Shown piece by piece: positions 21,930 through 40,148 of a stretch of DNA of 64,000 bases. Location: the NCBI GenBank assembly GCA_965219685.1, contig CBDCOH010000002.1:1376001-1440000 (forward strand), given 5' to 3'. The DNA is from Candidatus Spongiisociaceae bacterium. Lineage in GTDB: Bacteria; Actinomycetota; Acidimicrobiia; Spongiisociales; Spongiisociaceae. Made by a program: the position numbers and the translations under genes. Position 1 is the stretch's first letter. Each line of letters starts with the position of its first letter. The notes below the pieces were generated by a model. The model was not told where the DNA came from and ran no database searches. It saw nothing but the letters and a program-made list of their open reading frames with translations.

Positions 21930-22922
21930 ATGAGCGCCAACCGCTCCTACCGGGAAGAGGATCGTGCTGTCGAGGTCGACGGCGCAACGCTGGCCGGGAC
22001 GCTCGCCCTCCCCACCACGGAGGGCCCGTGGCCCGTGACGCTCCTCCTGGGAGGCACGTTCTCGGATCTGAGGGATGCTGATGTGGATCCCAGGCTGTGG
22101 CCGGGGGTGCCCAGGCGCGGCATGTACGCGATCCTCGCCCGCGGGCTGGCGGAGGCGGGCATCGCCTCGTTCCGCTTCGACCGCAGGGGCGCCGGCGAGA
22201 GTACGGGAGAGTTGGGCGTCGAGCGCGCCCAGGAGGTCGCTGACGCCGGGACCGTGTGGCGATGGGTCAGGTCCCTTCCGGAGTGCAACGGCAGGGCGGC
22301 CATGCTGGGCCACAGCGCCGGCGCCTACGTGCTGTGCCGGGTGGCGCACGAAGTGGGCCAGCCCGACGCGGCGGTGCTCCAAGGCGCCCTGTACCGCACG
22401 ATCGCCGAACTCCTCGAATACAACTACCGCCTGGTACGCGACTACCTGGGCCTCGGGGAATCCGAGGCGGCATGGGTGAGGGAGAACTCCCCGAAGGCCT
22501 ACGAGGATGCGATGATGATGGACACCATCGTGGGGGCGATCGAGAACAGAGAGCCGCAGGCCGTTGCGGAGCTGAAGGGCGATAGGAGAACCCGTGACCT
22601 GTCGAGCCTGCGGTACGACCTGGACCTTCCTCCCGAGGAACAGTTCCGCCACCTGGCCGCCCCCGCCCTCGTGCTGCACGCCTCCGAGGACCTGAACGTC
22701 CCCGTGGAGGACGCCTTCGACACGGTCCGCGCCTTGTGGGCCGCCGGGAACCGGGACGTGGAGTTGAGGGTGGTCCCGGGCGCCAACCACTCGTTCCAAC
22801 TGGACGCCGAGGACTACGCCACCCGGGTGCGGGAGAAGATCACGATGAAGAACTTCGGGCGACCCTTCCATCCCCTCTATCCGAGAGTCGTGATCGACTA
22901 CCTGACAAGAACGCTCCTCTGA
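21930..22922 (+). CDS. Alpha/beta hydrolase
   Basis: LAGTLALP, RFDRRGAGES, GHSAG nucleophile, D.NVP, GANH. Confidence 0.85.
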   Translation: MSANRSYREEDRAVEVDGATLAGTLALPTTEGPWPVTLLLGGTFSDLRDADVDPRLWPGVPRRGMYAILARGLAEAGIASFRFDRRGAGESTGELGVERAQEVADAGTVWRWVRSLPECNGRAAMLGHSAGAYVLCRVAHEVGQPDAAVLQGALYRTIAELLEYNYRLVRDYLGLGESEAAWVRENSPKAYEDAMMMDTIVGAIENREPQAVAELKGDRRTRDLSSLRYDLDLPPEEQFRHLAAPALVLHASEDLNVPVEDAFDTVRALWAAGNRDVELRVVPGANHSFQLDAEDYATRVREKITMKNFGRPFHPLYPRVVIDYLTRTLL

Positions 22923-23045
22923 TCCTGCCGCAAGGTTCCAATGCTGTCATTGTTCGCTCTGCCCCGACTTTGATCGGGGCTAACCTCGGCGTTGGGGCCT
23001 GTGATCGGCCAGCCGTACACGTCGTGTACCTGTTAGGAGAGTCCG

Positions 23046-24470
23046 ATTAGCTCGCGATCCGTCACCTGCGACCTTCTCATCAGCGGCGGCGTGGTCGTCA
23101 CCGTCGATGACCGGCGTCGCGTGATCGATCCGGGCGTGGTGGCGATAACCGGAGACCGGATCGTCGGGGTCGGGAACCGGCACGACATGCGCCACTACCA
23201 CGCGGACCGGGTGATCGACGCTTCCGGTGCAGCGGTCCTACCCGGGCTCGTGGACACCCACCAGCACCTGTTCCAGTACCTGACCCGCGGTCTGGGCGAA
23301 GGTCTGGAGCTGTGGCCCTGGTTGTCCGACTTCATGTGGCCGGTGACCACCGCCATCTCCCCCGAGGAGGCGAGGATCGGCGCGCAACTCGGGGCTGTCG
23401 AGGCGGCCCGCTCCGGCGTCACCACGATCCTGGACAACCATTACGCCCCCACCGACTTCCAATCCACACTGGCCGTGGCCGACGCCATAGCCGCGGTCGG
23501 ACTGCGCGGTGCGGTTGCCAGGGGCATGACCGGGGAACTGACCGAGATGGCGGCCAAGCACGGCCTGGCCGGCGAGTTGTTCCGCTACTCCAACCAGGAG
23601 GAGCTCGACATCACCCGGGCCTGCATCGAGGCTCGTCCACCCGGCGCCCGCGTCGGCGTCTGGCCGGCCCCCCTCAACATCATCTACGTCGACCAGCAAC
23701 TCGTGGTCGATGCAGTAGGCCTGGCCCGCGAGACAGGCACCGGCTGGCACTCGCACTGCTCGGAGGCAGCGAACGACCCGGTCTTCTACCTGGAGGAATA
23801 CGACCGCAGGCCGGTCGAGTGGCTGGCGGAACAGGGCCTGTTGGACCGGCGAGCCACCCTGGCCCACGGGATCTTCCTGGATGACCGCGAGGTCGAACTG
23901 GTCGGGGACTCGCGGACCGGCATCGCCTACTGCCCCATCTCCCATCAGTACATCGCCTTGGGGGTGATGCGTCTGCGCGACCTCCGCAGGGCCGGCGCCA
24001 CCGTCGGCCTCGGTCTCGACGGGGGAAGCGGGCACCGGCTGGACATGTTCGCCTGCATGAAGCAGGCGGTCCTCCTGCAGCGGGTCCACACGCAGAACCC
24101 CACCGAGTCCAACGGTGAGGAGGCGATAGAGCTGGCCACCAGGGTCGGTGCCGAGTACATGGGGATCGAAGCCGGCGTGATCGCCCCCGGAAAGCTTGCG
24201 GACCTGGTGATCGTGGACCAGTCCGCTCCCCACCACGCGCCACTCCACCGCACGGTGGCATCGGTTGTCTACTCGACCAGTCCCTCCGACGTGACCCACA
24301 CGATCGTGGGGGGCGAGGTCATCTTCGAGAACGGGAGCTGCACCATGGTGGACGAAGCGGCGGTAGTGGAGGAAGCCAACGGACGGGCGGCCGACCTCGT
24401 GTCGCGGGCGGGGCTGACCTCCCTTCTCGAGCCTTGGCGTACAGCCCCGGCGGCTTCGGGCAAGGAGTGA
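23046..24470 (+). CDS. MtaD/SsnA/TRZ-ATZ-type amidohydrolase (deaminase); probable ATT start
   Basis: PGLVDTHQH, HSHCSE, AHG, GLGLDG; conserved CDLLISGG lies upstream of the first GTG (23091); AGGAG 6 nt before ATT. Confidence 0.85.
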   Translation: MSSRSVTCDLLISGGVVVTVDDRRRVIDPGVVAITGDRIVGVGNRHDMRHYHADRVIDASGAAVLPGLVDTHQHLFQYLTRGLGEGLELWPWLSDFMWPVTTAISPEEARIGAQLGAVEAARSGVTTILDNHYAPTDFQSTLAVADAIAAVGLRGAVARGMTGELTEMAAKHGLAGELFRYSNQEELDITRACIEARPPGARVGVWPAPLNIIYVDQQLVVDAVGLARETGTGWHSHCSEAANDPVFYLEEYDRRPVEWLAEQGLLDRRATLAHGIFLDDREVELVGDSRTGIAYCPISHQYIALGVMRLRDLRRAGATVGLGLDGGSGHRLDMFACMKQAVLLQRVHTQNPTESNGEEAIELATRVGAEYMGIEAGVIAPGKLADLVIVDQSAPHHAPLHRTVASVVYSTSPSDVTHTIVGGEVIFENGSCTMVDEAAVVEEANGRAADLVSRAGLTSLLEPWRTAPAASGKE

Positions 24471-24560
24471 GACATCGGCTGGAGGATATCCACAGAGTGG
24501 CGGTTGTAAGCGCGTTCCAGGTCTGTTCCGCTTAGCTCACGTTCACGATATGATCTGTCT

Positions 24561-24920
24561 ATGACTACTAAGACAAGATACTACAACGTTACCGGGCGGG
24601 ATTTCCTTACCAAGGCTCGGAGCTACCTAGCCGAGGGAGACCTGCTGCAAGCCTCCGAGAAAGGCTGGGGCGCTGCCGCCCAAATGGTTAAGAGCGTCGC
24701 CGAGGCCCGAGGATGGCCCCACAACGGGCATCACGAACTATGGCGTGTGGCCAACCGCCTCGTGGACGAGACCGGAGACCGGGACATTCGGACCGCATTC
24801 ACTGCTGCCGGCGCCCTGCACACCAACTTCTACGAAGGCTGGTTACCTCGCGAACACGTCGAGGACTGCCTTGCCCAGGTCGAGGAGTTGATCTCGAAGC
24901 TGGAAGCTCTCGCCGCCTAG
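24561..24920 (+). CDS. PaREP1-family (HEPN-like) protein
   Basis: QASEKGWGAAAQMVKSVA, LHTNFYEG; TATGAT -10 six nt before ATG (leaderless). Confidence 0.82.
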   Translation: MTTKTRYYNVTGRDFLTKARSYLAEGDLLQASEKGWGAAAQMVKSVAEARGWPHNGHHELWRVANRLVDETGDRDIRTAFTAAGALHTNFYEGWLPREHVEDCLAQVEELISKLEALAA

Positions 24921-25422
24921 CCGGCGGATGCCGGGTGTCTCGGCTCACGACCTTTCATCCTCGCCCGCCAGGCGCCATCAAGTCGCGAAAAACGCCGAGG
25001 TCCATCCCTGCACAGGGCCCGCCCCCAACCTCCACCTTGCCTGGGCGTGGGCGCGAACCCCTGGTCCGCCACCGTGCAGATGCTCCGCGATCATGTTCCC
25101 TCGGGCGGTCGAGCCGACGTCGAACGCTGGACCGCCGGGTGCTTGGTCAGATACGAGTAAGCGTGCCGGAAGGGTGTGACAGGGTCAACCCCCCTGTGCC
25201 TCGGGCTGTGCGCCCGGCTCGAACCCTGGCAGGGTCAAGTACCCTCACAGCCCACTGGTTCTCCGGCTTCAACCAATCTCCTGGGGTTGCCGCCAGGCAG
25301 GCCGGATGCAGAGAGTCGAGGCACGAGCGGGTAGGTTCTGTACGGTTTGTGCCGACCCGGCGGTCTCTCGAAGCCACGGTGGCCAGCGCCGGGAGCAGTC
25401 AGTTGTCTGGAAAGGAAAACCG

Positions 25423-26388
25423 ATGGGCGAGATCGAAGCGACCTGGGACTTTCGCGACCCGTACCTGTGGATGCAGAAGACGGCGCGGAGCGCGTTGCCG
25501 CCTTTGATCATCACCGCGGCCATCAGCGGCGGCGGCCACGGTAAGGAGTCGAACGCGGCCCTGCCGGAGACGCCGGAGGAACAGGCCGCGGAGGCCCGCC
25601 GGGCGTACGAGGCCGGGGCCTCGCAGATCCACGTGCACGTGAGGGACCCGCAGGACTGGAGCCAGTGCAGTGGCAACCGGGAGGACTACGGGCGGGTCAA
25701 CCGGATGATCCGCGAGCAGTGCCCGGACGTGATCATCAACAACAGCACCGGCGGGGGCCCGACGCTAACCACCGAGGAGCGTTATTCGCCCCTGTTCGCC
25801 GATCCGGCGCCCGACGTGGCGACGCTCAATCTCGGACCCTTCGTCTCGCGCTTCACAATGCCCGAGAGGCCCGACCACCTGCCGCATCCACGGGGACCCG
25901 TCGAGTACGACATGTGCAGCGGGACGACCTACGGCGAGCTCAACCACTACGCCTCGGTGATCGCCGAGCGCGGCATGAAACCAGAATTGGAGATCTACGA
26001 CCCCGGCCAGTACTGGGTGCTCCGGGACCTCATCTACAACCAGAACGTGACCCCTCCCTACATGGTCCAGTTCGTCCTGGGCGCGCAGACGGCATCCTTC
26101 CCGACCCCCGCCAACCTCACGTCGCTCATCAGCGAGCTGCCCGCCGGAGCCCTGTTCTCGGTGATCGGGACGGGACCGTTCCAGATCCCGATGAACGTCC
26201 TGGGAATCCTCCTCGGCGGCCACGTGCGAGTGGGGCTGGAGGACAACATCTACTACCGGCGGGGAGAGAAGGCAACCGGTAACGCGCAACTGGTGAGCCG
26301 CATCCGGCGCATCGCCGAGGAGATGAACCGGGAGATCGCCACCCCCGCCCAGGCCCGCCAGATGCTCGACCTCCCGCAGGTCGCATGA
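25423..26388 (+). CDS. Beta-keto acid cleavage enzyme (BKACE/Kce, DUF849)
   Basis: IITAAISG, PETPEE, AGASQIHVHVRD, INNSTGG, KPELEIYD, GGHVRVGLEDN, NAQLV. Confidence 0.92.
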   Translation: MGEIEATWDFRDPYLWMQKTARSALPPLIITAAISGGGHGKESNAALPETPEEQAAEARRAYEAGASQIHVHVRDPQDWSQCSGNREDYGRVNRMIREQCPDVIINNSTGGGPTLTTEERYSPLFADPAPDVATLNLGPFVSRFTMPERPDHLPHPRGPVEYDMCSGTTYGELNHYASVIAERGMKPELEIYDPGQYWVLRDLIYNQNVTPPYMVQFVLGAQTASFPTPANLTSLISELPAGALFSVIGTGPFQIPMNVLGILLGGHVRVGLEDNIYYRRGEKATGNAQLVSRIRRIAEEMNREIATPAQARQMLDLPQVA

Positions 26389-26443
26389 GCGGCCATGGCT
26401 GTCAGGTGAGCACCGAACTCGGCGACGGACCGGGAGGGTCCGG

Positions 26444-27781
26444 GTGGTAGGCGCCGGTCCGCGCCGCCAGGTCCTCAACCTGGGTTCGTTCCCCGTCACC
26501 GATGTCCGGGCAGGCTCCGCCACGGCCCTGGCCGGCGGAGTGCTCACCGTCGACCTCGAGGAACTGGAGAGGATGCTGTCCGACGATCCCAACTTCGCCG
26601 CAGTCTCGGTGAGGATCGTCAGGCCGGGAGACCCGGTTAGGGTCATCAACGCCATCGACGCCGTCGAGCCGCGGATCAAGGTAGACCCCGTGGGCGCTGA
26701 CTTCTCGGGACTGCTCACCACGCCCCGGTTTGTCGGCCTCGGCACGACCCACGCCCTCAAGGGGGTGGCGGTGGTCGAGACCGCCCTTCCGGTGCCGGGA
26801 GAGCCCCGCTACTGGCGTGAGGCGATCTTCGACATGGCCGGACCCACCGCCAAGTACTCCCCCCTTTCCGAGCTTTTCAACGTGGTGGTCTCGTGCGAGC
26901 CCACCCGGGCCCTGCTGGAGAGCAGCGACCGGCCCACCAACGTCTTCGAGGGAACGCCGGAGGCGGTGGAGTACAACAAGGCGGTCCGGCTAGCGGGTCT
27001 CAGGGCGGCAACTTACCTGGCCGAGACAACCCTGGGGATGGAACCCGAGCGGTCGGACACCTACGACCTGGCCCCGTCACCCGCCGACGGCCTGCCGGCC
27101 GTCGTGTATCTGTACCAACTCGCCATCCCGTTCCTGCACGGCGAGATCGCTCCCGGCGCCGGCGCGATCGGCGGAGCGGCCCACCTTCCCACGCCGATCC
27201 ACCCGAACGAACTGCTCGACGGTGCGCTGGTGTGCGGCTGGAACGCCATAGCCTGCATGAGGGAGCTCACCTACACCGTGCAGAACCATCCCATCATCGA
27301 GGATCTGTACGCCCGCCACGGCCACGACATCGACTTCCGCGGCGTCGTGCTGTTCACCAACGGCGACACGCGCGCCGCCAAGGAGCGTTTGGCCAACCAC
27401 GCGGCCAACCTGGCGATCATGATGGGCGCCGAGGGGGCGCTGATCAACTACGCCGGAGGTGGGCATCCCGCCGTCGACGCCATGATGATCTGCAGGAATC
27501 TCGAGCGGCGGGGAGTGACGACCACGATGCTGTCCATGGAGATGGCCGCCAATCCCGGCGAGTCCGGCTTCGTCCACTTCGTCCCGGAGGCCGATGCCAT
27601 CGTGAGCACCGGGAACTACGAGGAGACGGTCCCGTTCGAGCCGGTGGAGCAGGTCATCGGGGGTGACGCGATGATCCAGATCGAAAGCGACCCAGCCGGC
27701 GCGTTCGAAGCCCCATTGGCCATCGTCATGGCCAGCACCCACCAGTTCGGCGGAACACACATACGAGGCGAGGAGTACTGA
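26444..27781 (+). CDS. Glycine/sarcosine/betaine reductase component B proprotein-like subunit (GrdE/GrdG/GrdI family)
   Basis: RPGDPVRV..IDAVEPRIKV, HPNELLDGALV, TY..QNHPIIEDLY, EADAIVSTGN. Confidence 0.85.
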   Translation: MVGAGPRRQVLNLGSFPVTDVRAGSATALAGGVLTVDLEELERMLSDDPNFAAVSVRIVRPGDPVRVINAIDAVEPRIKVDPVGADFSGLLTTPRFVGLGTTHALKGVAVVETALPVPGEPRYWREAIFDMAGPTAKYSPLSELFNVVVSCEPTRALLESSDRPTNVFEGTPEAVEYNKAVRLAGLRAATYLAETTLGMEPERSDTYDLAPSPADGLPAVVYLYQLAIPFLHGEIAPGAGAIGGAAHLPTPIHPNELLDGALVCGWNAIACMRELTYTVQNHPIIEDLYARHGHDIDFRGVVLFTNGDTRAAKERLANHAANLAIMMGAEGALINYAGGGHPAVDAMMICRNLERRGVTTTMLSMEMAANPGESGFVHFVPEADAIVSTGNYEETVPFEPVEQVIGGDAMIQIESDPAGAFEAPLAIVMASTHQFGGTHIRGEEY

Positions 27782-27790
27782 GGGGTTCCC

Positions 27791-29116
27791 ATGGCCAAGA
27801 TCGTCCACTATCTCAACCAGTTCTTCGGAGGGATGGGCGGCGAGGACCGCGCCGGCACCGGCCCGGTCTCCCAACCCGGTCCGGTGGGAACGGGCCGCGG
27901 ACTGGCCCGTCTCCTGGAGGCCGACCACCGGATCGTGGGGACGGTGATCTGCGGCGACAACTACATGGCACAGGGAGGGGCACCGGCCGTCGACGAGGTG
28001 GTCGAGTTGATTTCCGGGTTCGGTCCGGATGTGGTGGTCGCCGGGCCGGCCTTCGGATCCGGGCGGTACGGCCTGGCCTGCGGTGCGGTCTGCCGGGCGG
28101 TGACCGACCGGCTCGGCATCCCGGCCGTGACGGGGCTCCACGCCGACAGCCCGGGCGCCGCCGAGTGCCGGGCATGGGTTCCGATTCTCGCCACTGCCGA
28201 GACTGCCGCAGGCATGGGTGTCGCGCTCGAGAACCTCGCCCGGCTGGCCATGAAACTCGCACGCGGTGAGGAGTTGGGGAGCGCCGACGAAGAGGGGATT
28301 CTCACCAGGGGCCTTCGCCGCAACAAGTTCGAAGACCTGCGCGGATCGACCAGGGCGATCGAGATGCTGCTCTCCAAGATGCGAGGGGAGCCTTTCAGGA
28401 CGGAGTGGCCACTCCCCCGCTACGAACCTGCGGAACCTTCCGAGCCGATAGAAAGGGGCGCCCCCTTCCGGCTGGCACTGGTAACCGAGGCGGGGATCGT
28501 CCCGGCGGGAAACCCCGACCGGCTGCCATCCGGTTGGGCGACCGACTGGATGACCTACACGATCCACGACCGGGACGGCTTCGCGGAGGGCGAGTTCGAA
28601 TCGGTCCATGGCGGTATCGACACCAGCTTCGCCAACCGTGATCCCGATCGCCAGGTTCCGCTCGATGTGGCCCGATCGATGGAGCAGGAGGGCCGGTTCA
28701 GCCTCCATCCCGAGCTGCTCAGCACAACGGGAAACATGGGCACCCTCCGTGACATGACCCGCATCGGTGCCGAGATGGGACGCGCGTTGATCGCCGACGG
28801 CGTTCAGGCCGCCATCGTCGGTTCCACCTGAGGGACGGGGACGCGTAGCGGGTCTACGCTTGCGAAGTCGATCGAGAACCAGGGCGTTCCGGCCGCCCTG
28901 GTTACGGCGCTGGTACCGCTGGCGGAGTCGGTGGGGGTGCTGCGAATCGTCCAGGGCAAGGCCGTCACCCATCCGTTCGGCGACCCGACCCTCGAGGCCG
29001 CCGACGAACTCACGTATCGCAGGCTGGTGGTCGAGACCGCCATCACCGCTCTGGAAACGAACGTGGCGGAACCCACGGTGTTCGAAGTAGGAGATCGAAC
29101 GGCCGCGGTGGGGTAA
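27791..29116 (+). CDS. Glycine/sarcosine/betaine reductase selenoprotein B-like subunit (GrdB family), Sec at codon 347
   Basis: HYLNQFFGG..GE, TVICGDNY, GPAF..GRYG.ACG, GIVP.GNPDR, HGG.D; in-frame TGA at 28829 in ST-U-GTGTRSG, followed by GrdB-like C-terminus HPFGDP..RRLVVETA..TVF. Confidence 0.9.
28843..28859 (+). promoter_or_regulatory. Bacterial SECIS-like hairpin
   Basis: GCGTAG-CGGGT-CTACGC stem-loop starting 11 nt after the UGA, G-containing apical loop. Confidence 0.72.
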
Positions 29117-29157
29117 AATGCATAGCTAGCCGTCACTTTTCGGCTGTTTTCGACGGC

Positions 29158-30303
29158 ATGATGTACACAAGCTCACCCAGGCACCACAACGGAGCTTCTT
29201 TCTGCTTGGCGTGAGAGGAGTCGGCAAGAGCACTTGGGCGCGCTCCGTGCTGCCGGACGCATTGCGCCTCGACCTGCTCGACGAGGCGCTGTTCACCGAC
29301 CTGCTGACCGACCCGTCACTATTCGCAAGGCTTATCTCCGGGCGACACAGCGGTCAGTGGGTGGTGGTGGACGAGATACAGCGGATACCGAGCCTGCTCA
29401 ACGAGGTGCACCGCACATCGAGGAGAGCGGTATCCGGTTCGCGCTGCTGGGTTCGAGCGCCCGCAAGCTGAAGACCGCCGGGACCAACCTCCTGGCAGGC
29501 CGAGCCCTGCGCAAGGTGATGTACCCGCTCACCGCTGCCGAACTCGGCGACGACTTCGACCTCGACCAAGTGCTCCAGTACGGCACGATCCCACTCGTCT
29601 GGGTCTCGGATGAGCGCCGCGAGGCGCTCGAGAGCTACACCCAGCTCTACCTGCGGGAGGAGATCAGGGCCGAAGCGGTGGTGCGGAACCTGGCCGGATT
29701 CGTACGGTTCCTGCCAATCGCCGCGCTGATGCACGCCCAACTCGTGAACGCGGCCGGCATCGCACGTGACGCCGGTGTCGCCCGATCCACGGTCAATGGC
29801 TACTTGGAGATCCTGGAGGACACTCTCGTGGCCACCCGGCTACCGGCGTTAGACACCAAGCTTCGGGTACGTGAGCGTCGGCGACCGAAGCTCTACTGGG
29901 TGGATCCCGGCCTGGTAAGGGCCATCAAGCGACGCCTCGGGACGGTGGCCTCTGAGAAACCGGGCCCGCTCTTGGAAGGATGGGTGTTCGGCACCCTCCG
30001 GGCCCACGCCGAACACCACCATCTCTACGACGACATCGCATACTGGGCCCCGGCCCAGTCGCAGACCGAGGTCGTTTCGTCCTCACCCGCGACGGAAGGC
30101 ACCTCGCCATCGAAGTCAAGGCCGCTCGGCGCTACCACACGTCCATGGTCAAAGGCCAGCGGGCCATCGCGGATCTGGCAGGACTGACCCGCCGCATCCT
30201 GGTCTACACCGGCCCGCACACCTTCCGCACGAACGACGGCATCGAGGTCTGGCCTCTCACCACCTTCCATGAAGTCATCGCCGAGGACCGCCTCTGGCCC
30301 TGA
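29158..30303 (+). pseudogene. AAA_14/DUF4143 ATPase, frameshifted
   Basis: GVRGVGKST, VDEIQRIP, LLGSSARKL, KLYWVDPGL, AIEVK distributed over different frames; shifts near 29175, 29415 and 30075. Confidence 0.82.
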
Positions 30304-30444
30304 ACCGGACACGCAACTCACCCTGGACCGACACCACCACGTTCACCACACCCACGGCCCCGGCAGCCCCCCAGGGCGCAGGAACATCGCGACGTCAGTG
30401 GTCAGGTGTCAACGGACAACGAGCAACGGACAACGGATCCAGCC

Positions 30445-31848
30445 CTAACGCCTCCAAGGGGTAAGGAGGCCATGCAGGCCGGCCCGGTCGATGAGGTCTT
30501 CGGAGCGGGATTGCGCCTCCTCCATGACCTCGTCCTCGTCGACCATGGTGCAGCGGCCGTTCTCGAGAACGATCCGGCCGTCGATGATGGAGTGGACCAC
30601 GTCAGAGCCCCGGGCACAGTAGGTGAGCGCCGAGACGGTCCGGTGCCAGGGCGTCAGGTGGGGACTCTTCATGTTCACGACGATCAGGTCGGCCAACTTG
30701 CCGGGGGCGATCACTCCGGCCTCGATGTTCGCGTAACGGGCACCCTCCCTCGTCGCCATCTCCAGAGCCTCCTCACCGTTGCTGATGGTCGGCTCCAGGG
30801 TGTGCACGCGTTGCAGGAGGATGGCCTGCTTCATCACCTCGAACATGTCCTGGCGGTGGTTGCAGCACGGTCCGTCGGTACCGAGGCCGATCGGAGCGCC
30901 GGACGCGCGCAGTTCGCGCAGTCTCATCACCCCGAGAGCGATGTACTGGTGGGAGATCGGGCAGTAGGCGATTCCTGTCTCTGTCTCGCCCACATGGTCG
31001 ATCTCGGCGTCATCCAGGTAGATACCGTGGGCGATGGTCGCCTCGGGTCCCAGCAGGCCTTCCTTGTACAGCCACTCGACCGGCCGGATGCCGTACTCCT
31101 CGAGGTAGGTCGGCGGATCCTCCAGACGCTCCGAGCAGTGGGTGTGCCACCCGACCCCGCCCTCGCGGGCCAGCGCCACGCTGCGCCGGACCAGGTCCTG
31201 GTCGTTGTAGATGATGTTGAGCGGCGCCGGCCAGACCTCGACCCGCCCACCGGCCGGGTACTCCTCCATGGCGGTGCGGGTGATCTCCATCTCCTCGTCG
31301 TTGGTGTAGGAGAAGAGTTCCCCGGCGAGGTTGTACCGGCGGGCGATGTCGGTCGCCTCGCCGGTGATCCCCCGCGCCACGGCACCCCGCAACCCCACCT
31401 CTCCGATGGCGCCTGCCACGGCCAGGGTGGTGTCGAGATCCGACGGCGCGTAGTGGAGATCGACAACGGTGGTGGTACCGGCCTTGAGCGCCTCCACCGC
31501 TCCCAGCCTCGCTCCGATCCGGCCTTCCTCCAGGTTGATGGAGATCGAGAACGGCCACATGAAGTCGGTCAGCCAGGTCCACAGCGGCATCCCCTCACCG
31601 AGGCCGCGGGCCAGGCCTTGGAACAGGTGGTTGTGGGTATCGATCAACCCGGGGAGGACGGCGGACCCGGAGCAGTCGATGGTGCGCGCTGCCCGGTATC
31701 CGGCCATGTCCTCGTCGGAGCCGACCGCCACGATGCGGTTGCCCGACACCGCGACGGTTCCCGGATCGATTACCCGGCGCTCGTCGTCGACGGTCACCAC
31801 GGAGCCTCCGGTCAGGAGGAGGTCGCACTCTCGGTTTGTCTCGTTCAT
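30445..31848 (-). CDS. MtaD/SsnA-type amidohydrolase; paralogue of 23046..24470
   Basis: PGLIDTHNH, HTHCSE, AHG, GLGTDG; shared YCPISHQYIALGVMRL. Confidence 0.9.
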   Translation of the reverse strand: MNETNRECDLLLTGGSVVTVDDERRVIDPGTVAVSGNRIVAVGSDEDMAGYRAARTIDCSGSAVLPGLIDTHNHLFQGLARGLGEGMPLWTWLTDFMWPFSISINLEEGRIGARLGAVEALKAGTTTVVDLHYAPSDLDTTLAVAGAIGEVGLRGAVARGITGEATDIARRYNLAGELFSYTNDEEMEITRTAMEEYPAGGRVEVWPAPLNIIYNDQDLVRRSVALAREGGVGWHTHCSERLEDPPTYLEEYGIRPVEWLYKEGLLGPEATIAHGIYLDDAEIDHVGETETGIAYCPISHQYIALGVMRLRELRASGAPIGLGTDGPCCNHRQDMFEVMKQAILLQRVHTLEPTISNGEEALEMATREGARYANIEAGVIAPGKLADLIVVNMKSPHLTPWHRTVSALTYCARGSDVVHSIIDGRIVLENGRCTMVDEDEVMEEAQSRSEDLIDRAGLHGLLTPWRR

Positions 31849-31863
31849 CTGGCCAACCTCCTT

Positions 31864-32796
31864 CTATCCGGCGGCTGTCCCGCCTGTATCCTCATCACGG
31901 TCCGGGATCCGCAGGAGGCGAGAGGCGGTGCCCCCCATGATCGCCGCGAGCTCGTCCGGCGTCAGTGCGGGCCCCCCGACCTGTTCGGCCACCCGGTTGA
32001 CACTGTGGAAGATGCCGGAAGCCACTCCTCCCGGACCGGACTTCTGCTTGTCGTTGTTGTCGGAGCCGTAGACCGCCCGGTCCAGCGCGTTCAGGCTCCT
32101 CAACTTGTTCAACACCCGGTACAGATCCCGTGGGTCTCCTCCCGCGTAGTAGGACAGGTCCGCGTAGAAGTTGGGATGGCGAGCCACGACCGCGATCCCC
32201 TCGTCGACATACGGGAAGGCCAGGTAGACGACTACCTTGAGGCCCCGGTAGCGGATACCTAGCTCGTCGAGCAGCATCGGGCGGGCGTGGTGTATGGGAG
32301 CGTTGATGATCGGCGTGAACCCCGTGTGGGTGTGGATCGGGATGTCCAGTTCCAGACACTTCTCGTAGACGGGCGCCAGCCGCCGGTCGGCGGGATCGTG
32401 ATGGTGATAGGTGGGAAGGAGCTTCATCATGCGGAACCCGTACTCCCGGACGCAGCGATCGATCTCCTCGGTCGCCCACCGCACATCGCGCAGCGGGTCC
32501 ACACACACCACCCCGTAGAGACGTCCCGGATGGGCCGCACACTGGGCCGCCGTGTAGTAGTTCGGCACGTACACCTCGTGCTCCTCCGGATGGCTCGGAT
32601 GGAACGTGGTACGGCGCAGGTCCGATCCGTGAGCAAGGCCCACCTCGATCCCGGCCTCGTCGAGGAGTTGGACCAGGGCGGCGCCGTCCGTCCAGCAGTA
32701 TTCGCCTCCGTAGGGGCGGTACAACTCCTCCATCCACCAGACGGGCGCATGGCGGGGGGTCTCGGTCAGGTAGAGCAGGACGTCGACGGTGGGCAT
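31864..32796 (-). CDS. Amidohydro_2-type amidohydrolase lacking HxH
   Basis: MPTVDVLLYL, DLRRTT, HTHTG, YGSD. Confidence 0.85.
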   Translation of the reverse strand: MPTVDVLLYLTETPRHAPVWWMEELYRPYGGEYCWTDGAALVQLLDEAGIEVGLAHGSDLRRTTFHPSHPEEHEVYVPNYYTAAQCAAHPGRLYGVVCVDPLRDVRWATEEIDRCVREYGFRMMKLLPTYHHHDPADRRLAPVYEKCLELDIPIHTHTGFTPIINAPIHHARPMLLDELGIRYRGLKVVVYLAFPYVDEGIAVVARHPNFYADLSYYAGGDPRDLYRVLNKLRSLNALDRAVYGSDNNDKQKSGPGGVASGIFHSVNRVAEQVGGPALTPDELAAIMGGTASRLLRIPDRDEDTGGTAAG

Positions 32797-32800
32797 CGGC

Positions 32801-33700
32801 TCAGTCCAGTTTGTACAGGCGGCGGGCGTTGCCACCGACTATGCCCTCGATCTGCGCTGCGACGAAAGGCTCCCGGTATGTGCGCTCGGCTACCTCGTTC
32901 AGTTCGTCCAGCAGGTGGGTCCCGATCTGCTGACCCCCGCCGGTCCGGTCCTTGTCGTTGTTGTCCGAGCCGTACACGACGCGTTCGAGTGCGTTCAAGC
33001 CCCGGAGCTTGTCGAGAGCGTCAAACAGGGGCTCGGGGCCGGCACCGACGAAGTAGGCGATGTCGGCGTGGAAGTTGGGATGGCGGGCCACCACGGCGAT
33101 CCCCTCATCGACGTAGGGGAAGTTGATGTACACGAGTACCCGCAGATCTCGATGGCGGATGCCGATCACATCGAGCCTCTCAGGATGGCCGTACCGGAGT
33201 GCCGCCGTGATGGTCGGCGAATACCCGGTGTTGACATGGGCGACGATGTCGAGTTCCTCGCAGCTCTCCAGCATCGGCGTGACAGCCGGATCGTCTATGT
33301 AGTAGTTCTGGTAGGTCGGCAGGAACTTCGAGGATCTGAAACCGTACTCCTCGACGCATCGGCGTTGCTCTATGACTCCTGCCCTCACGTCTCTCAGGGG
33401 ATCGATGTTGGCGACGCCGATCAGCCGGTCGGGGAACAGGGCCACCTGCTGGGCCGTGTAGTCGTTGGGGACGAACACGTGGCGCTGGTCAGGGAAGTCC
33501 GGATGATAGGTGGTACGGCGGATGTCGGACCCCTGGACCATCCCGATGTCGACACCACCCCGGTCGAGGATGCCGACGATGGCAGCGCCGTCCGTCCAGA
33601 TGTATCCACCGCCGTAAGGACGGTACATCTCCTCCATCCACCAGATCGGCGCCTGCTCGGCGGAGTCCGTCAGGTGGAGGTGGCAGTCGACGGTCAGCAT
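32801..33700 (-). CDS. Amidohydro_2-type amidohydrolase
   Basis: DCHLH, DIRRTT, HPNFHADIA, YGSD. Confidence 0.88.
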   Translation of the reverse strand: MLTVDCHLHLTDSAEQAPIWWMEEMYRPYGGGYIWTDGAAIVGILDRGGVDIGMVQGSDIRRTTYHPDFPDQRHVFVPNDYTAQQVALFPDRLIGVANIDPLRDVRAGVIEQRRCVEEYGFRSSKFLPTYQNYYIDDPAVTPMLESCEELDIVAHVNTGYSPTITAALRYGHPERLDVIGIRHRDLRVLVYINFPYVDEGIAVVARHPNFHADIAYFVGAGPEPLFDALDKLRGLNALERVVYGSDNNDKDRTGGGQQIGTHLLDELNEVAERTYREPFVAAQIEGIVGGNARRLYKLD

Positions 33701-35469: not shown

Positions 35470-36357
35470 ATGAGCGCCAGATCCCCTAACCCCTGGGTGC
35501 TCGCCGCCCGGCCTCGCACCCTCTGGGCGGCTGTCAGCCCGGTGCTGGCCGGGTCGGGCCTGGCAGTCGGCAGCGGCGTGTTCCGGGCCGATGCGATGGT
35601 GGCCGCCCTGGTCTGCGCCCTGAGCCTCCAAGTGGCCGCCAACTTCGCCAACGACGCCTCCGACGCCCGGCGGGGCGCCGACCCGGAGAACCGCATCGGC
35701 CCGACCCGGGCTGTGGCGACCGGACTGCTGACCTCTCGGCAGGCGTGGATGGCGGTCTGGACCATGTTCGCCACAGCCGGCGCGTGCGGTCTCTACGTAG
35801 CTTCGATCACCAGTTGGTTGGTGGTCGGCGTAGGTGCGGTGGCGATCCTGGCCACGCTCACCTACACGGGCGGCCCTTCCCCCTACGGCTACAGGGGTCT
35901 CGGTGAGGTGTCGGTGTTCATCTTCTTCGGGCTCGCCGCCACGGTGGGGACCCGCTACGCCCACGACGGAACCGCACCGTTGGAGGCCTGGCTCCTGGCG
36001 GTGCCGGTCGGGTTGACCGCATCGGCGATCCTGGTAGCCAACAACGTCCGCGACATCGACACCGACGCGGCGGCCGGCAAGCGGACCCTGGCAGTAGTGC
36101 TGGGCCGGGACCGCGCACGGACGCTGTACACGGCGACGGTGACGGCCGCCTTCGTAGTGATCGCGGTGGCGGCGGGGACCGGGCTCGTCCCACGCTGGGC
36201 GGCGCTGGGTCTGCTCACCGCTCCGCTGGCCCTCCCGCTCATCAGGACCATCCACTCGACCGCCGAAGGCCCCGCCCTGATCAGAGTGCTCGAGGGCACC
36301 GCCCGTCTGCATCTCCTGGCCGGCATCGGCCTCAGCATCGGGGCCGCGTTCGGTTGA
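35470..36357 (+). CDS. menA: 1,4-dihydroxy-2-naphthoate polyprenyltransferase
   Basis: ARPRTL, NFANDASD..GAD..RIGP.R, YTGGP.PYGY.GLGE, NNVRDIDTD..GKRTLAV. Confidence 0.92.
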   Translation: MSARSPNPWVLAARPRTLWAAVSPVLAGSGLAVGSGVFRADAMVAALVCALSLQVAANFANDASDARRGADPENRIGPTRAVATGLLTSRQAWMAVWTMFATAGACGLYVASITSWLVVGVGAVAILATLTYTGGPSPYGYRGLGEVSVFIFFGLAATVGTRYAHDGTAPLEAWLLAVPVGLTASAILVANNVRDIDTDAAAGKRTLAVVLGRDRARTLYTATVTAAFVVIAVAAGTGLVPRWAALGLLTAPLALPLIRTIHSTAEGPALIRVLEGTARLHLLAGIGLSIGAAFG

Positions 36358-36503
36358 CACCAGGGACGACCTGAGAGGGGTAGACCCACGTCCCCCCGCC
36401 ATGCTGCATCGAGTTCGCAGTCCTGGTTGGGGGTCTCCGTTGCTTGAGGATCAGAACCTGTTCTTTAGCAGAGTGACGTTTTGGACCATTCTCAGGGTGT
36501 TTA

Positions 36504-36540
36504 TGTCACAGCCGGGTCCTATAATGCGAACATATGTACG
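36504..36540 (+). promoter_or_regulatory. Candidate DNA-damage promoter: PafBC/RecA-NDp-like motif plus LexA-like box
   Basis: TGTCAC-N10-TATAAT followed by CGAAC-ATAT-GTACG overlapping the ATG. Confidence 0.6.
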
Positions 36541-37898
36541 ATCACCTACTCGACTACCCCGAACCCGACACGGTCAAGCCCCGCGACTTCCTCGACCGGG
36601 GTGGTGCGGAGCCGGACGGCGACATGTTCACCACCCGCTACCAGAGGGAATGCCGCAGGGTCTATGAACGTGCCCGCCACATGGCCGAGCGTTCGGACTA
36701 CGCGCACGCGGACGTGGAGGACGCCAAAGCCGAGGCCGCCCTGGTCAGGGCCCAAGCGCAGGTCAGCCGGGCCCGCGGCGACCAGGTCGGCTGGGTGCGC
36801 CACATGCTACGGCGGGGTGCTGTGGCAAGGTTCGGGTATCGCAACCCCACCGAGATGGTCGCCTCACGACTCGACGTGCGCCGCTCCGTCGCCCGCGACC
36901 TCGTCTATCTGGCTGAGCGGCTCAGCGATAACCAGGTCGAGTCGATCCGCCACGGTTCGGTCTCCTACGAGCGGGCGTTGGCAGAGACACGACTGAGCGA
37001 TGCCGGCGCGTCACGGGAGGTGATCGAACGAAGCCGCGGCGACGACCTCGAATCGGTCAAGCGGATCCTCCAAGCACATCGCCGCATGAGCCGCCACGAC
37101 GAACGCCGAATCTTCGAAGGCCAGTACCTGACCCTGCAGCCCTCCCTGGACGGCAGCCACGTGCAGGTCAACGGCCGGCTCGCCGCCCTCGAAGCCGAGA
37201 TATGCCGCAACGGCCTGGACCGGCGCGGCGAAAAGCTCCTACCCGCCGGCGAAGACCGTCCCGACGCAGGACAGAGAAGAGCCCTGGCCCTCACCACCCT
37301 ATGCCAGGACGAACTCGACCGCAGCCCACAACCCGCCCGCACGACCACGGAACGGTTCCGGGAGGCCTCCAGACGCCGCGAACCGGCCCTCATGGTCGTC
37401 GCCGACCAGCAACTAGCCGACAAATCAGGATACGAACAAGGCGCAGCAGTACTCGCCGGCGCCCGGGTAGGACCCGACACCATAGACCTCATCCGCTGTG
37501 TCGGCACCACCGAGACAATCACCGTGGCCGGCCACGACATCATCCAACACGGAACGACCACATACCTGACGCCGTCGCTACGCCGTGCCGTGCTAGCCCG
37601 AGACGACGGATGCACCATCGACGGATGCACATCCACCTACCGGCTCGAAGTCCACCACATCACCCCCCGATCCGAAGGAGGGGACCACAGCCCCGACAAC
37701 CTCACCACCCTGTGCTGGTGGCACCACCACGTATCCATACACCGCCGAGGCATGCGCATCGACCCCCAATCACCACCCCGAAGACGGCGGCTACTACCAC
37801 CCACAAGAACCTGCGGCTACCAGCCACCCGACCCCGACCCCCACACCCTCGCCATACTCCGCGCACTCCACACCCGCCCCAACCGGTCCCCACCCTGA
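36534..37898 (+). CDS. DUF222/13E12-like HNH endonuclease
   Basis: LRRAVLARDDGCTIDGC..EVHHI..GG..NL.TLCWWHH. Confidence 0.87.
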   Translation: MYDHLLDYPEPDTVKPRDFLDRGGAEPDGDMFTTRYQRECRRVYERARHMAERSDYAHADVEDAKAEAALVRAQAQVSRARGDQVGWVRHMLRRGAVARFGYRNPTEMVASRLDVRRSVARDLVYLAERLSDNQVESIRHGSVSYERALAETRLSDAGASREVIERSRGDDLESVKRILQAHRRMSRHDERRIFEGQYLTLQPSLDGSHVQVNGRLAALEAEICRNGLDRRGEKLLPAGEDRPDAGQRRALALTTLCQDELDRSPQPARTTTERFREASRRREPALMVVADQQLADKSGYEQGAAVLAGARVGPDTIDLIRCVGTTETITVAGHDIIQHGTTTYLTPSLRRAVLARDDGCTIDGCTSTYRLEVHHITPRSEGGDHSPDNLTTLCWWHHHVSIHRRGMRIDPQSPPRRRRLLPPTRTCGYQPPDPDPHTLAILRALHTRPNRSPP

Positions 37899-38201
37899 CC
37901 AGGACGGCCATAACGGAGCGGTAAAGGCAAGCGAATAACGAGCCTGACCGCAGTTCTCGCGCGGGAGGATGCTGCTATCGGACGGTATCGTGGTCGAACA
38001 GCGCTACGCGGCCCGTTCGCGCGGCCCAGTGCAGCGCCCGACCCCGGACCACGGCCTGTCTATCTCCCTGTTCAGTAACTCTCCGAGCCTACCGCTGTCA
38101 CCCGTTACGCTACACACGAGGATACGGGTGTCCAGCAGAGTCACGCCTCTGCGTGAACGCCGTCATGGAGGATGGAAAATAGTCTGATCTGATGTTAGCC
38201 A

Positions 38202-38244
38202 CCGATCTCCAACTAACAACTATAGAGCTACCGACTAGGAACTA
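38202..38244. repeat. Degenerate heptamer tract
   Basis: CCGATCT CCAACTA ACAACTA TAGAGCTA CCGACTA GGAACTA; abuts the hydrolase stop codon. Confidence 0.75.
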
Positions 38245-39081
38245 ATCATCTGGGAGGTCGCTCAGGAAGTCGGCTATCTCGGCGGCCACCAAGTCGGGGC
38301 GCTCCATCACCACCATGTGGGACTGTCCCGTCAGGAACGATGTCTTGGCGTTCGGCAGCCGGCCCTCCAAGGCGTCCATCACGGCTTCCAATACCCCGGG
38401 GAAGTCGGAGATCAACAGCCTGATGGGTGCTGTCAGTTGATCGAGGCGTTCGTAGATGCGGGTCTCGGCGCTCGCAGCGAAGACGGCCGACTCCACCTCG
38501 GGGCGACATGCCAGGGCGACCCCTTCGGGATGAGGCACCAGACCCCCCTCCAGGTACCCGGAGAAGGCGTCCTCGTGCCACCGTGTGAACAATGGCTTCG
38601 AACGGTACGAATCGGCCGCGGCCTGGCGAGAAGGAAAGGTCGGGCGCCGCAGGGCCGCCATCACCGCCAAGGGGTGGTCATCCACTAGGGGCTCGTCTCC
38701 CGTTCCACGGAGGTGCGGGGCGATGATCACAGGCTCGATCAGCACCATGCCGGACAGCAGACCAGGTCGCATCATGTCGACCATCACCATGGCAGCGCCA
38801 CCCATCGAGTGCCCTACCCCCACAATGGGCGCCTTCGGTGACAACTCGTCGATCAGGTCGACCAGATCGTTTGCGAAAGTCCTCCACGTGACGTCCGATT
38901 CGAACGGAGGAGCGCTTCCGTGACCCCTAGCGTCCCAAGCCAGGGCGGTGGTGCCCACCCCCTGCTCGCGCAACTCAGCCACGAGCGGTCGCCAGACCTC
39001 CTTGCAGAAACCCGTGGCGTGACCGAGCAGTAGCAACGCATCGTCAGAACCCGCGTGCCACTCCAGTGCAGTCCGATTCAT
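38242..39081 (-). CDS. Alpha/beta hydrolase
   Basis: HATGF, DARGHG, GHSMGG, SHMVVME. Confidence 0.88.
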   Translation of the reverse strand: MNRTALEWHAGSDDALLLLGHATGFCKEVWRPLVAELREQGVGTTALAWDARGHGSAPPFESDVTWRTFANDLVDLIDELSPKAPIVGVGHSMGGAAMVMVDMMRPGLLSGMVLIEPVIIAPHLRGTGDEPLVDDHPLAVMAALRRPTFPSRQAAADSYRSKPLFTRWHEDAFSGYLEGGLVPHPEGVALACRPEVESAVFAASAETRIYERLDQLTAPIRLLISDFPGVLEAVMDALEGRLPNAKTSFLTGQSHMVVMERPDLVAAEIADFLSDLPDD

Positions 39082-39099: not shown

Positions 39100-40131
39100 C
39101 TACGCGTCGTCGTTTGCAATGACCCAGATCTGCTTCAGCGGGAGTTCGGCCTGGATCTCTTTGGGGAGACGGTCGTAGTTCTCGGTGATCTTTTCGATCA
39201 GATCGGCTGAGTCCCATATTCGAAGGTTGAACCACTGGTCCCGCGCCAACCTCCGTGCACCCCGGTTGAACCCGCTCCACGACACGAACAGCGACTGATC
39301 GGCGCCGAAGCTGCCAGCGGCGCCCAAGAGGTTTCGTAACGTGGGACCATCCACCGCCTTCTGTCCCGACTTGACCTGGACAGCGATCCTGGGCGGCTCA
39401 AAGCCGAGCGGTCCCCGGGCGGCCAGCACGTCGACTCCGCCGTCGGGACCGGCCGGGGACCGGAATGTGACGTAACCCTCCGCATCGAGTACCGCCTCGA
39501 CCAGTCTCTCCAACCCGTGTGCTTTGAACGTCGCGGCTATGTGGGCCGCGATGCCGTCGATCGCCAACGGCTCGATATCCACCGCGCCTTCTTCGTCGAC
39601 CGAGTCCGTACGGTCCTCTTGAGTCACTTCGCCCGATTGGCGGAGTTCCGGATCGCGCCCGGTCCGGGAGAACTCGGCCAGACGGGCTACTGCATTGTTC
39701 CGACTCGGGCTGAAAACCGTATGCAGGCCGCCCAACGTGTGGAGGAGATCCTGGCCGAGTGAACTTCGGGGCTGCTCGGTCAGCAGCCACTCCACAGGGC
39801 GAACGTGACGGCACCCGTCAGGGTTGCCGGGCTGGAACTTGTATCGGCCCGTGCATCGCCCTACCGCCAAGGTCCTTGTCCTCTTGGCGGGCAACACCAC
39901 CAGATCACCGATGTCGATGCTACGGACGAAGCGGAAGATCTGCCCGGCGTGGTTCAGCAGCCTGCCTCCCTCGGCGTATCCCGTAGCCAAGAGTTTCTCG
40001 CGGACTTCATCGCGGCCTTTGACGTTCGACAAGTCCCCCAACTCGTCCCAACCGATAACGACTACACCCATCTCCAGGGCGAAATCCTCATTCTCGCCGT
40101 CCTTGCCGGCGCGAACCACCCATGCCCTCAT
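39100..40131 (-). CDS. Mrr-family restriction endonuclease
   Basis: WVVRAG N-terminus; DGGVDV..AVQVKS Mrr_cat motif; LPLKQIW end. Confidence 0.85.
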   Translation of the reverse strand: MRAWVVRAGKDGENEDFALEMGVVVIGWDELGDLSNVKGRDEVREKLLATGYAEGGRLLNHAGQIFRFVRSIDIGDLVVLPAKRTRTLAVGRCTGRYKFQPGNPDGCRHVRPVEWLLTEQPRSSLGQDLLHTLGGLHTVFSPSRNNAVARLAEFSRTGRDPELRQSGEVTQEDRTDSVDEEGAVDIEPLAIDGIAAHIAATFKAHGLERLVEAVLDAEGYVTFRSPAGPDGGVDVLAARGPLGFEPPRIAVQVKSGQKAVDGPTLRNLLGAAGSFGADQSLFVSWSGFNRGARRLARDQWFNLRIWDSADLIEKITENYDRLPKEIQAELPLKQIWVIANDDA

Positions 40132-40148
40132 CCGCTCTACCTCCGTCG

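Follow-up and report, generated by a model that had tools for sequence, protein, structure and literature searches.

A GrdB-family gene with a probable selenocysteine codon and neither UxxCxxC cysteine, paired with a predicted non-pyruvoyl partner in a BKACE-headed operon of uncultured Acidimicrobiia

Introduction

Selenoprotein B enzymes are textbook anaerobic Stickland enzymes. The locus considered here lies in a 64,000-nt stretch of DNA from a Candidatus Spongiisociaceae bacterium of the class Acidimicrobiia (assembly GCA_965219685.1, contig CBDCOH010000002.1, positions 1,376,001 to 1,440,000 of the forward strand), the whole of which is referred to below as the window, and it raises a question in two parts: whether an open reading frame (ORF) related to the selenoprotein B subunit GrdB truly ends at the TGA codon at position 28829 of the window or continues through it with selenocysteine (Sec), and, if it continues, what a subunit devoid of both cysteines of the usual UxxCxxC motif may be doing beside a gene of the BKACE family. 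Taken as a whole, the locus is best explained, and in our judgement probably correctly so, by decoding of UGA 28829 as Sec to give a 441-aa GrdB-family protein that belongs to a non-pyruvoyl, BKACE-linked module. In the sections below, we discuss the evidence for the recoded gene, the hairpin that follows the UGA, the active-site motif and the partner subunit, the position of the locus within the family, and the proposed mechanism with its alternatives. The coordinates of all features are collected in Table 1.

One gene across an in-frame UGA

The ORF that begins at ATG 27791 closes at TGA 28829–28831, and the same frame stays open to TAA 29114–29116; the read-through product is 441 aa long, with the recoded residue U347 in the local sequence VGST-U-GTGTRSGSTLAKSIE. 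A first-pass annotation, made by a model from the letters of the DNA, had proposed a single gene split by this TGA, and its coordinates, the length of the product and the position of Sec347 are reproduced here. PF07355 (Pfam GRDB) matches residues 2–346 of the protein (6.5e-117; 391 bits against a cutoff of 22), and TIGR01918, the NCBIfam model of the glycine/betaine/sarcosine/D-proline family reductase selenoprotein B, aligns residues 3–432 with positions 1–431 of its 431 positions at 430.4 bits against a cutoff of 65.45. Because the latter match spans the full length, the 94 residues after the TGA are the normal C-terminus of the selenoprotein-B family, which bears out the GrdB-type C-terminus that the annotation had read there. 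The AlphaFold2 model of the protein (86 sequences) has a mean predicted local distance difference test (pLDDT) score of 93.7, with values of 93–98 per 10-residue block for residues 351–430, and it places residue 347 between the strand 340–344 and the N-terminus of the helix 348–363. A Foldseek comparison of this confident model with the PDB returned generic two-lobed alpha/beta folds only (sugar-binding proteins and epimerases, with a query-normalised template modelling score of at most 0.22), and a sequence search of the PDB gave 0 matches for either the GrdB-like subunit or its GrdE-like partner.

Homologues break off at the same place. A word-indexed search with the GrdB-like protein yielded 2584 matches, of which 120, at 46–93% identity, were listed, and 116 of these 120 terminate with ..[SAG]-T, one residue short of column 347. 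The four listed exceptions are a protein with a frameshifted end (P0021), a 255-aa fragment (P0041), and two 432-aa proteins (P0065 and P0066) that carry W at the Sec column, where the TGA has been translated by another table, followed by GTCTRCG. In the joint alignment, every one of the 114 homologues that are 330 aa or longer shows gaps from column 347 to the end, and U347 is aligned with the U of four out of four canonical grdB/F/H genes: grdF of Peptoclostridium acidaminophilum, grdH of Enterococcus gilvus, grdB of Acetoanaerobium noterae, and grdB of Photobacterium (plasmid collection). A homologue search limited to residues 325–441 gave no match at E <= 0.001. The DNA itself could be compared in one case: a scan of genome contigs produced 62 pattern matches, among which were only one true relative (L001) and one weak 82-residue match (L002). 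L001, the sole DNA relative compared, is a 21-kb contig from a metagenome-assembled genome (MAG), syntenic with the window at 18.9–41.0 kb, whose GrdB-like protein is 91% identical; it has the identical TGA and the identical 15 residues downstream of it. The TGA on which the first-pass proposal turned is thus kept in homologues, as the same codon in L001 and as the common end point of the 116 listed proteins.

The comparison with L001 also indicates how the segment beyond the TGA evolves. Upstream of the TGA, the non-synonymous divergence (dN) is 0.040 and the synonymous divergence (dS) 0.336, and codons 348–432 give similar values, with a dN of 0.054 and a dS of 0.316. The first start codon in frame after the TGA is GTG 28931, and the 33 codons before it (348–380) differ from L001 by 5 synonymous and 0 non-synonymous changes; since these fall ahead of any start codon, the stretch is translated in the grdB-like frame and cannot belong to an independent ORF further downstream. 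Decay of the pseudogene type, which the annotation had named as one finding that would count against it, was looked for in the downstream segment; what was found was a frame open over 94 codons with the low dN relative to dS just given. A search with the 94 C-terminal residues retrieved 40 small ORFs of 51–77 aa, one of which is the window's own while the other 39 show 66–91% identity; several of them lie on contigs that have the same nucleotide total as contigs listed for N-terminal pieces, and none of the 40 extends back as far as the U347 motif. The GrdB-like gene is one read-through gene of the selenoprotein-B family, and insertion of Sec at UGA 28829 is, in our estimation, very probable. 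The annotation had also called the gene hidden, which is correct for the ORF track, where it is split, but not for the databases, in which close relatives are already named by NCBI as members of the family, at 346 aa.

A hairpin in the position known from canonical genes

Between the TGA and the hairpin GCGTAG (28843–48)-CGGGT-CTACGC (28854–59) lie 11 nt (28832–28842), so that both the coordinates and the spacing first proposed for this element are as claimed. The SECIS (selenocysteine insertion sequence) of E. coli fdhF is a stem-loop about 11 nt after the UGA with a G in the apical loop; the window hairpin resembles it in starting about 11 nt past the UGA and in having a G in the loop, and in an alternative fold of the same region in the window, one U is bulged and the loop opens with GGUC.

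The comparison with the family itself is closer. All four canonical genes fold a (u)CGUUGC-GGN-GCAACG(a) hairpin on the codons R-C-G-A-T, and the window hairpin stands on the same alignment columns, with 92.9% of 42 cells paired. Two pairs have changed in a compensatory manner from the canonical genes to the window (U-A to G-C and U-A to A-U), and the closing C-G of the canonical hairpin is lost in the window, which enlarges the loop from 3 to 5 nt. The codon change that converts Cys to Ser (UGC to AGC) is one side of one of these compensatory pairs, and the RNA signal and the protein motif are therefore encoded by the same bases. As for coincidence, only 8 of the 1474 TGA trinucleotides on the two strands of the window have, 9–14 nt further on, a perfectly paired hairpin whose stem is 6 bp or longer and whose loop contains a G. 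We regard the element as a candidate SECIS that appears to be conserved at the canonical place and to which SelB would putatively bind.

Active-site motif and partner subunit

The four canonical DNA records all read ST-U-GTCTRCGATM, in agreement with the motif ST-U-GTCTRCG that the annotation had taken as established, and UxxCxxC is given for grdB/F/H in the available text of PMC6778437 (citing Wagner et al. 1999) and of the review PMC13188914. In the window and in L001, the corresponding reading is ST-U-GTGTRSGSTL, with G350 and S353 in the positions of the canonical Cys pair; the replacement of both UxxCxxC cysteines, as first described, therefore holds in the window and recurs in L001. Full-length Sec-less homologues show C-GTCQRCG (P0122), C-GTGTRCG (P0197 and P0214) or T-GTGTRSG (P0249) at the Sec column and motif, and the last three indicate that, in the family at large, the first Cys of CxxC has disappeared more than once. 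The annotation had set another finding against itself, homologues whose Sec column holds neither U nor C; these were looked for, and one was found: P0249, with Thr, is a partial protein, 37–39% identical and on another branch of the tree, and it has no bearing on the clade in which the stop is kept. Other cysteines of the protein have fared differently. Among close, middle and far homologues, C97 is retained in 32 of 33, 27 of 28 and 53 of 53, respectively, and it is present in the four canonical proteins; C101 is retained in 32 of 33 close homologues and also in GrdH; C54, universal in the canonical proteins, is retained in just 19 of 33 close homologues.

Immediately upstream stands a gene for a GrdE/GrdG/GrdI-like partner, which begins 56 nt past the BKACE gene and finishes 9 nt ahead of the GrdB-like gene; the order BKACE-E-B, with its gaps of 56 and 9 nt, is kept in L001. 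The protein falls below the equivalog cutoffs for GrdG (224 bits against 780), FarE (133.9 against 675) and PrdA (29 against 700). At the self-cleavage site, GrdE and GrdG (3/3) read SGN-C-VxxC, GrdI reads SGS-F-MPCS, and the window and L001 read CGW-N-AIAC (W266–N267), in which the second Cys of the pyruvoyl motif is retained as C271. Since W-N stands where N-C would be, the cysteine from which the pyruvoyl group is formed is missing, as in GrdI, and the partner is accordingly predicted, judging cleavage from its sequence, to be non-pyruvoyl. There is precedent in the description of FarE and GrdI as unprocessed subunits that are not proproteins, with a FarB that is without CxxC (PMC10838667, in the text available). 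Four natural fusions of E and B (P0128, P0174, P0175 and P0189; 774–798 aa) also have no N-C site, and they end at the Sec column. These fusions and what is known of the family make pairing of the two subunits likely, and we are highly confident that the GrdE-like and GrdB-like proteins form a heteromer.

In both genomes, the GrdE-like gene ends in a TGA that shares the frame of the GrdB-like gene and precedes the ATG of the latter by 9 nt (window 27779–27793; L001 9592–9606). This TGA was flagged by a scan for in-frame TGAs with coding signal on both sides and was judged to be an ordinary stop: 6 of the 9 spacer bases differ between the window and L001, which makes the E-B spacer look unconstrained. 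The same scan picked out TGA 28829 itself and, as a borderline case, position 12779 on the minus strand.

Place in the family and in the host lineage

A quick maximum-likelihood tree was computed from 95 N-terminal parts (LG+G4, with SH-aLRT support only; four rows had been cut from fusions and six at the Sec column). The window protein falls in a 21-row clade (SH-aLRT 99) that is nested in a set of 58 rows (95), and this set contains zero characterised or reference proteins, the GrdB and GrdF references together forming one other group and GrdH a third. The protein misses all the NCBIfam equivalog cutoffs for GrdB/F/H, with 415.7 bits against 602.2 for GrdB, 430.1 against 800 for GrdF and 371.4 against 775 for GrdH, and the PrdB model gives 58 against 300; for scale, GrdB of A. 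noterae itself scores 946 bits with the GrdB model. The gene thus belongs to a branch of its own, which occurs in uncultured Acidimicrobiia and has no characterised member. Its relatives at 83–84% identity are proteins from MAGs that NCBI names as Acidimicrobiia, a class of Actinomycetota, and that carry the label 'glycine/betaine/sarcosine/D-proline family reductase selenoprotein B' at a length of 346 aa, which upholds the actinobacterial lineage proposed at the outset. In the protein collection, close relatives come from contigs of 1.6–4.1 Mb. The window has mycothiol, F420 and menaquinone genes. A preprint reports Sec machinery in another order of the Acidimicrobiia, with GrdB unmentioned in its available part (10.64898/2026.04.03.716425).

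Among the named systems, the betaine reductase GrdH/GrdI (P. acidaminophilum; E. gilvus, L005) shares with the window a Sec subunit and a partner without the N-C site, the TGA at the same column, the hairpin on the same codons, and, in GrdH, equivalents of C97 and C101. It differs in sequence (39% identity; 371 bits against 775 with the GrdH model), in tree branch, in the UxxCxxC motif, which GrdH has and the window protein does not, and in the adjacent trxB-trx-grdA-grdC-grdD genes of E. gilvus, which were not found in the window. The glycine and sarcosine systems GrdB/GrdE and GrdF/GrdG have the same two-gene layout with the E-type gene directly upstream, the same Sec column and the same C-terminal domain, whereas identity is 42–43%, and the CxxC and the pyruvoyl N-C site of the partner, both present there, are missing in the window. 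The fluoroacetate reductase FarB/FarE of Cloacibacillus porcorum is alike in that it combines, by its description in the available text of PMC10838667, a Sec B subunit without CxxC and a partner that is not a proprotein; with the FarE model, however, the window partner attains 134 bits where the cutoff is 675, and FarB was compared by description only. A far-type antiporter or radical-SAM gene was not found in the window operon, whose neighbours are the BKACE gene and amidohydrolases. The D-proline reductase PrdB/PrdA is a distant member of the family and resembles the window locus as a Sec enzyme that, according to the parts of PMC13188914 and PMC10298544 at hand, acts without GrdA/GrdCD, but PrdA is a pyruvoyl proprotein, PrdB is listed with UxxC (PMC13188914), and the scores with both models are far below their cutoffs (58 against 300 and 29 against 700).

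Proposed mechanism and alternative readings

The mechanism of the family is itself unsettled: the available text of PMC13188914, PMC10838667 and PMC10298544 shows debate over the carbonyl group, over what Sec does in protein B and over what CxxC contributes. For the locus described here, we propose that a stem-loop beginning 10–11 nt 3' of UGA 28829 would assist Sec decoding, and that the selenolate of Sec347, at the N-terminus of a helix, would attack the carbon adjacent to a carboxyl or acyl function, expelling a leaving group, an attack that is inferred from the family (PMC13188914, PMC10298544 and PMC10838667, in the parts available). With a partner that has no Asn-Cys pyruvoyl site, the substrate is probably not bound as a Schiff base, and in the absence of a pyruvoyl group its leaving group should be a good one, as is the case in betaine and fluoroacetate. 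The substrate may thus carry its leaving group, for example a betaine-type quaternary ammonium, on the carbon beside the carboxyl or acyl group, and the adjacent BKACE could supply it. BKACE enzymes make betainyl-CoA and glycine betaine from dehydrocarnitine (PMC9321204, in its available text), for which reason a betaine-type substrate is the best guess, and we put forward a betaine-type or other non-Schiff-base substrate only tentatively. The selenoether would then be resolved by a thiol or selenol other than the missing CxxC, for which the candidates would be a GrdA-type protein from another locus, the conserved C97/C101 pair, one of the partner's cysteines (C264 and C271 lie close to the former cleavage site), or else a small thiol. 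Cleavage of a C–N bond and a redox chemistry different from that of the canonical subunits had been suggested in the first-pass annotation, and for the GrdB-like subunit we, too, only infer them.

Several observations weigh against this proposal. The GTGTRSG variant is confirmed in one relative only, the 91% identical L001, and the Thr of P0249 alongside GTGTRSG indicates that a non-redox role for this type of motif exists somewhere in the family. Since the window and L001 are the same in the hairpin, the two compensatory pairs amount to one evolutionary event; folded as a single sequence, the post-UGA stretch does not stand out from its shuffled versions (z-scores of -0.2 to -1.06, and +0.54); and the ensemble favours the hairpin 28842–28864 (-10.8 kcal/mol, pair probability about 0.33) over 28843–28859 (-7.6 kcal/mol, about 0.03), a preference on which covariation cannot pass judgement because L001 is identical there. 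Rfam, run with the gathering threshold on the whole window and in E-value mode on 28700–29000, reported no SECIS family and only a chance SrbA fragment. The SECIS-type hairpin of the first-pass annotation thus stands as regards its position, which is homologous to the canonical one and rarely matched by chance, but it is not the preferred local fold. Neither selA, selB, selC and selD nor a tRNA-Sec (ARAGORN) was seen within the 64-kb window and the 21-kb L001. GrdA, GrdC, GrdD, thioredoxin, thioredoxin reductase and GrdX were not found by tblastn in the window or L001, and NCBIfam models run on 50 ORFs of the window detected no grdA/C/D or thioredoxin system. The substrate of the BKACE, finally, is not assignable from its sequence, and the link to betaine is one of adjacency in two closely related genomes only.

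The absence of these partner genes bears directly on the most serious alternative, an ordinary Stickland-type complex in which an additional, substrate-specific protein B hands a carboxymethyl group to GrdA and GrdCD and is recycled by thioredoxin, with the genes for these partners located elsewhere in the genome, the missing cysteines affecting only the protection of Sec against oxidation. In three of the four canonical loci, grdA/C/D and trx genes stand beside the B genes, and their absence from the window and L001 counts against such a complex, but canonical organisms keep extra B modules apart, and the fourth locus (L003, grdX-grdG-grdF) has none of these genes within 6 kb on each side; not finding them in 64 kb is therefore only a weak sign that the genome is without them. 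FarB, moreover, is without CxxC and is yet predicted to feed GrdA (PMC10838667), and CxxC has been called protective and not catalytic (PMC6778437 and PMC10838667, in the text available of each). We therefore allow this reading roughly one chance in three.

A stand-alone reductase coupled to the BKACE, in which the pair reduces the alpha-substituted acyl-CoA made by BKACE with no need of GrdA or GrdCD, seems to us unlikely; an example would be the conversion of betainyl-CoA to trimethylamine and acetyl-CoA, which would regenerate the acetyl-CoA that BKACE consumes. It draws on the single operon BKACE-E-B with its short gaps kept in L001, on the failure to find grdA/C/D nearby in the window and L001, on the non-pyruvoyl partner and on BKACE chemistry of the kind available from PMC9321204, but its basis is purely adjacency in two genomes that are 91% alike, the specificity of the BKACE is not assignable from profile or PDB matches, there is no resolving thiol beside Sec, and a literature search for BKACE together with glycine reductase found no precedent. 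In its fullest form, to which we give a slightly smaller chance still, the system would be self-contained and independent of GrdA/GrdCD: BKACE would convert dehydrocarnitine, or another beta-keto acid, to betainyl-CoA or a similar alpha-substituted acyl-CoA, the Sec subunit would remove the substituent (trimethylamine) to leave acetyl-CoA for re-use by BKACE, and the selenoether would be resolved by a small thiol (mycothiol, for instance), by C97/C101 or by one of the partner's cysteines. If true, a lineage of Actinomycetota would carry out a Stickland-like reduction that recycles CoA.

Read-through without selenium, whether by a standard tRNA that suppresses the UGA or with a non-catalytic residue as in the Thr-bearing homologue, we hold to be very improbable. 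P0249, with Thr at the Sec column and an identical GTGTRSG, and the window in which no Sec machinery was seen would fit it, but the UGA is retained at this single column across the family, the hairpin occupies the canonical SECIS position, Sec machinery is reported in another order of the Acidimicrobiia (preprint 10.64898/2026.04.03.716425, in its available part), and P0249 sits on a different branch of the tree. The weakest reading, a real stop at TGA 28829 with a 346-aa protein that works alone or a decaying gene, can appeal to the 346-aa products of gene callers and NCBI records and to a B component without the motif that was judged a likely pseudogene in another genome (PMC6778437, in its available text), but it is scarcely credible against 94 open downstream codons under purifying selection, 33 of them before any start, a segment kept in 39 other relatives that matches the family C-terminus, and a C-terminal segment that folds confidently with the remainder in the model, and in its pseudogene form it was rejected on the selection signal downstream of the TGA.

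Feature coordinates and genomic neighbourhood

Table 1. Features of the locus, in window coordinates.
Feature	Position	Strand	Remarks
GrdB-family selenoprotein gene	27791..29116	+	441 aa with U347
In-frame UGA, very probably read as selenocysteine 347	28829..28831	+	same TGA in L001; same column in 4 canonical genes
Post-UGA coding segment, 94 codons	28832..29113	+	purifying selection against L001; covered by 39 foreign small ORFs
Motif S-T-U-G-T-G350-T-R-S353-G	28823..28852	+	canonical S-T-U-G-T-C-T-R-C-G; identical in L001
Hairpin GCGUAG-CGGGU-CUACGC, candidate SECIS	28843..28859	+	positional homologue of the canonical grdB/F/H hairpin
Alternative hairpin, 8 bp with bulged U, loop GGUCUA	28842..28864	+	minimum free energy structure, -10.8 kcal/mol
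GrdE/GrdG/GrdI-like 'protein B' partner, predicted non-pyruvoyl	26444..27781	+	PF09338 (Gly_reductase) 3.2e-96
Site aligned with the canonical SGN/CVxxC self-cleavage (pyruvoyl) motif: C264-G-W-N267-A-I-A-C271	27233..27256	+	two alignments
BKACE gene	25423..26388	+	PF05853 2.4e-81; start ATG 25423 behind GGAAAGGAAA

The BKACE protein is below every NCBIfam equivalog cutoff, and its best PDB relative is the 3-keto-5-aminohexanoate cleavage enzyme 2y7d (1.8e-44). A scan of 22800–30500 for promoters and terminators gave nothing above shuffles. The 500-nt spacer upstream of the BKACE start (24921–25422) contains a block of about 140 nt (approximately 25015–25155) that is nearly invariant with respect to L001, against a dS of about 0.33 in the neighbouring genes; the spacer has no Rfam match or riboswitch, a fold z-score of -1.69 and no convincing ORF, and the block may be a regulatory element. 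Between the preceding amidohydrolase gene and the BKACE operon lies a gene of the archaeal-type PaREP1/PaREP8 family (24561–24920, plus strand; PF05942, 3.7e-22), which is single in the window and a tandem duplicate (96%) in L001 (5807–6106 and 6365–6664). Just 3' of the selenoprotein gene, a DUF4143 gene (29234–30187, plus strand; L001 11029–12228) has 77.5% DNA identity against 90–91% for its neighbours, and this segment is one of faster evolution or exchange.

Amidohydrolase genes are unusually dense in four regions of the window (3387–6831, 23091–24470, 30445–33700 and 61739–63259), with three of the Amidohydro_1/TRZ-ATZ-like type and five of Amidohydro_2, and beside them are genes for a CoA-transferase III, a short-chain dehydrogenase/reductase, a 3-hydroxyacyl-CoA dehydrogenase and a NitT/TauT-type ATP-binding cassette transporter; the cluster looks like a catabolic island for small nitrogenous compounds. 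Two ORFs have no counterpart at the syntenic place in L001, namely an HNH-endonuclease ORF with a weak IscB-like match (36534–37898; insert 36342–38259) and an Mrr_cat restriction-endonuclease ORF (39100–40131; insert 39109–40147), and both are strain-specific insertions, likely of mobile or defence genes. An 89-nt tRNA-Pro(ggg) called by ARAGORN on the minus strand (38884–38972) lies inside a coding ORF (38242–39081, with alpha/beta hydrolase matches). The call is probably spurious and does not represent a tRNA-Sec. A 166-aa ORF on the minus strand (61233–61733) matches FAD-binding N-termini (CrtO/CrtI-like) over residues 9–105 and a VapC PIN toxin model over residues 98–163, and it probably merges two overlapping or fragmentary genes.

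Implications for the selenoprotein B family

Part of what is described here is already on record: the selenoprotein-B family itself, the naming of close relatives, in truncated form, by NCBI as members of it, and, in the available text of PMC10838667, the FarEB pair without CxxC and without a proprotein partner. Literature searches, with subscription journals and preprint supplements outside their scope, found no description of this branch, of its GTGTRSG motif, of a BKACE-headed operon, or of a Cys-to-Ser change that forms half of a SECIS compensation; nor did they return anything relevant on GrdB in Acidimicrobiia or on carnitine and betaine in sponge Acidimicrobiia, the work found on Acidimicrobiia selenoproteins making no mention of GrdB in the text available.

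In this large branch, which selection has maintained in uncultured Acidimicrobiia, the combination of features, in which Sec and its RNA signal are kept while both cysteines and the pyruvoyl site are lost (the motif having been seen in the window and L001), suggests that neither the cysteine pair nor the pyruvoyl group is essential for a Sec-dependent protein B. It calls for caution in labelling copies without CxxC as pseudogenes, as was done in PMC6778437 (in its available text), and it offers a natural variant for probing the role of the cysteines. Gene callers truncate the branch at 346 aa, as they have done in 116 of the 120 listed homologues, and the branch is under-annotated as a result. 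If the link to BKACE is functional, the operon would point to a pathway, so far unrecognised, by which carnitine- or betaine-type osmolytes are turned into methylamines in organisms other than strict anaerobes.

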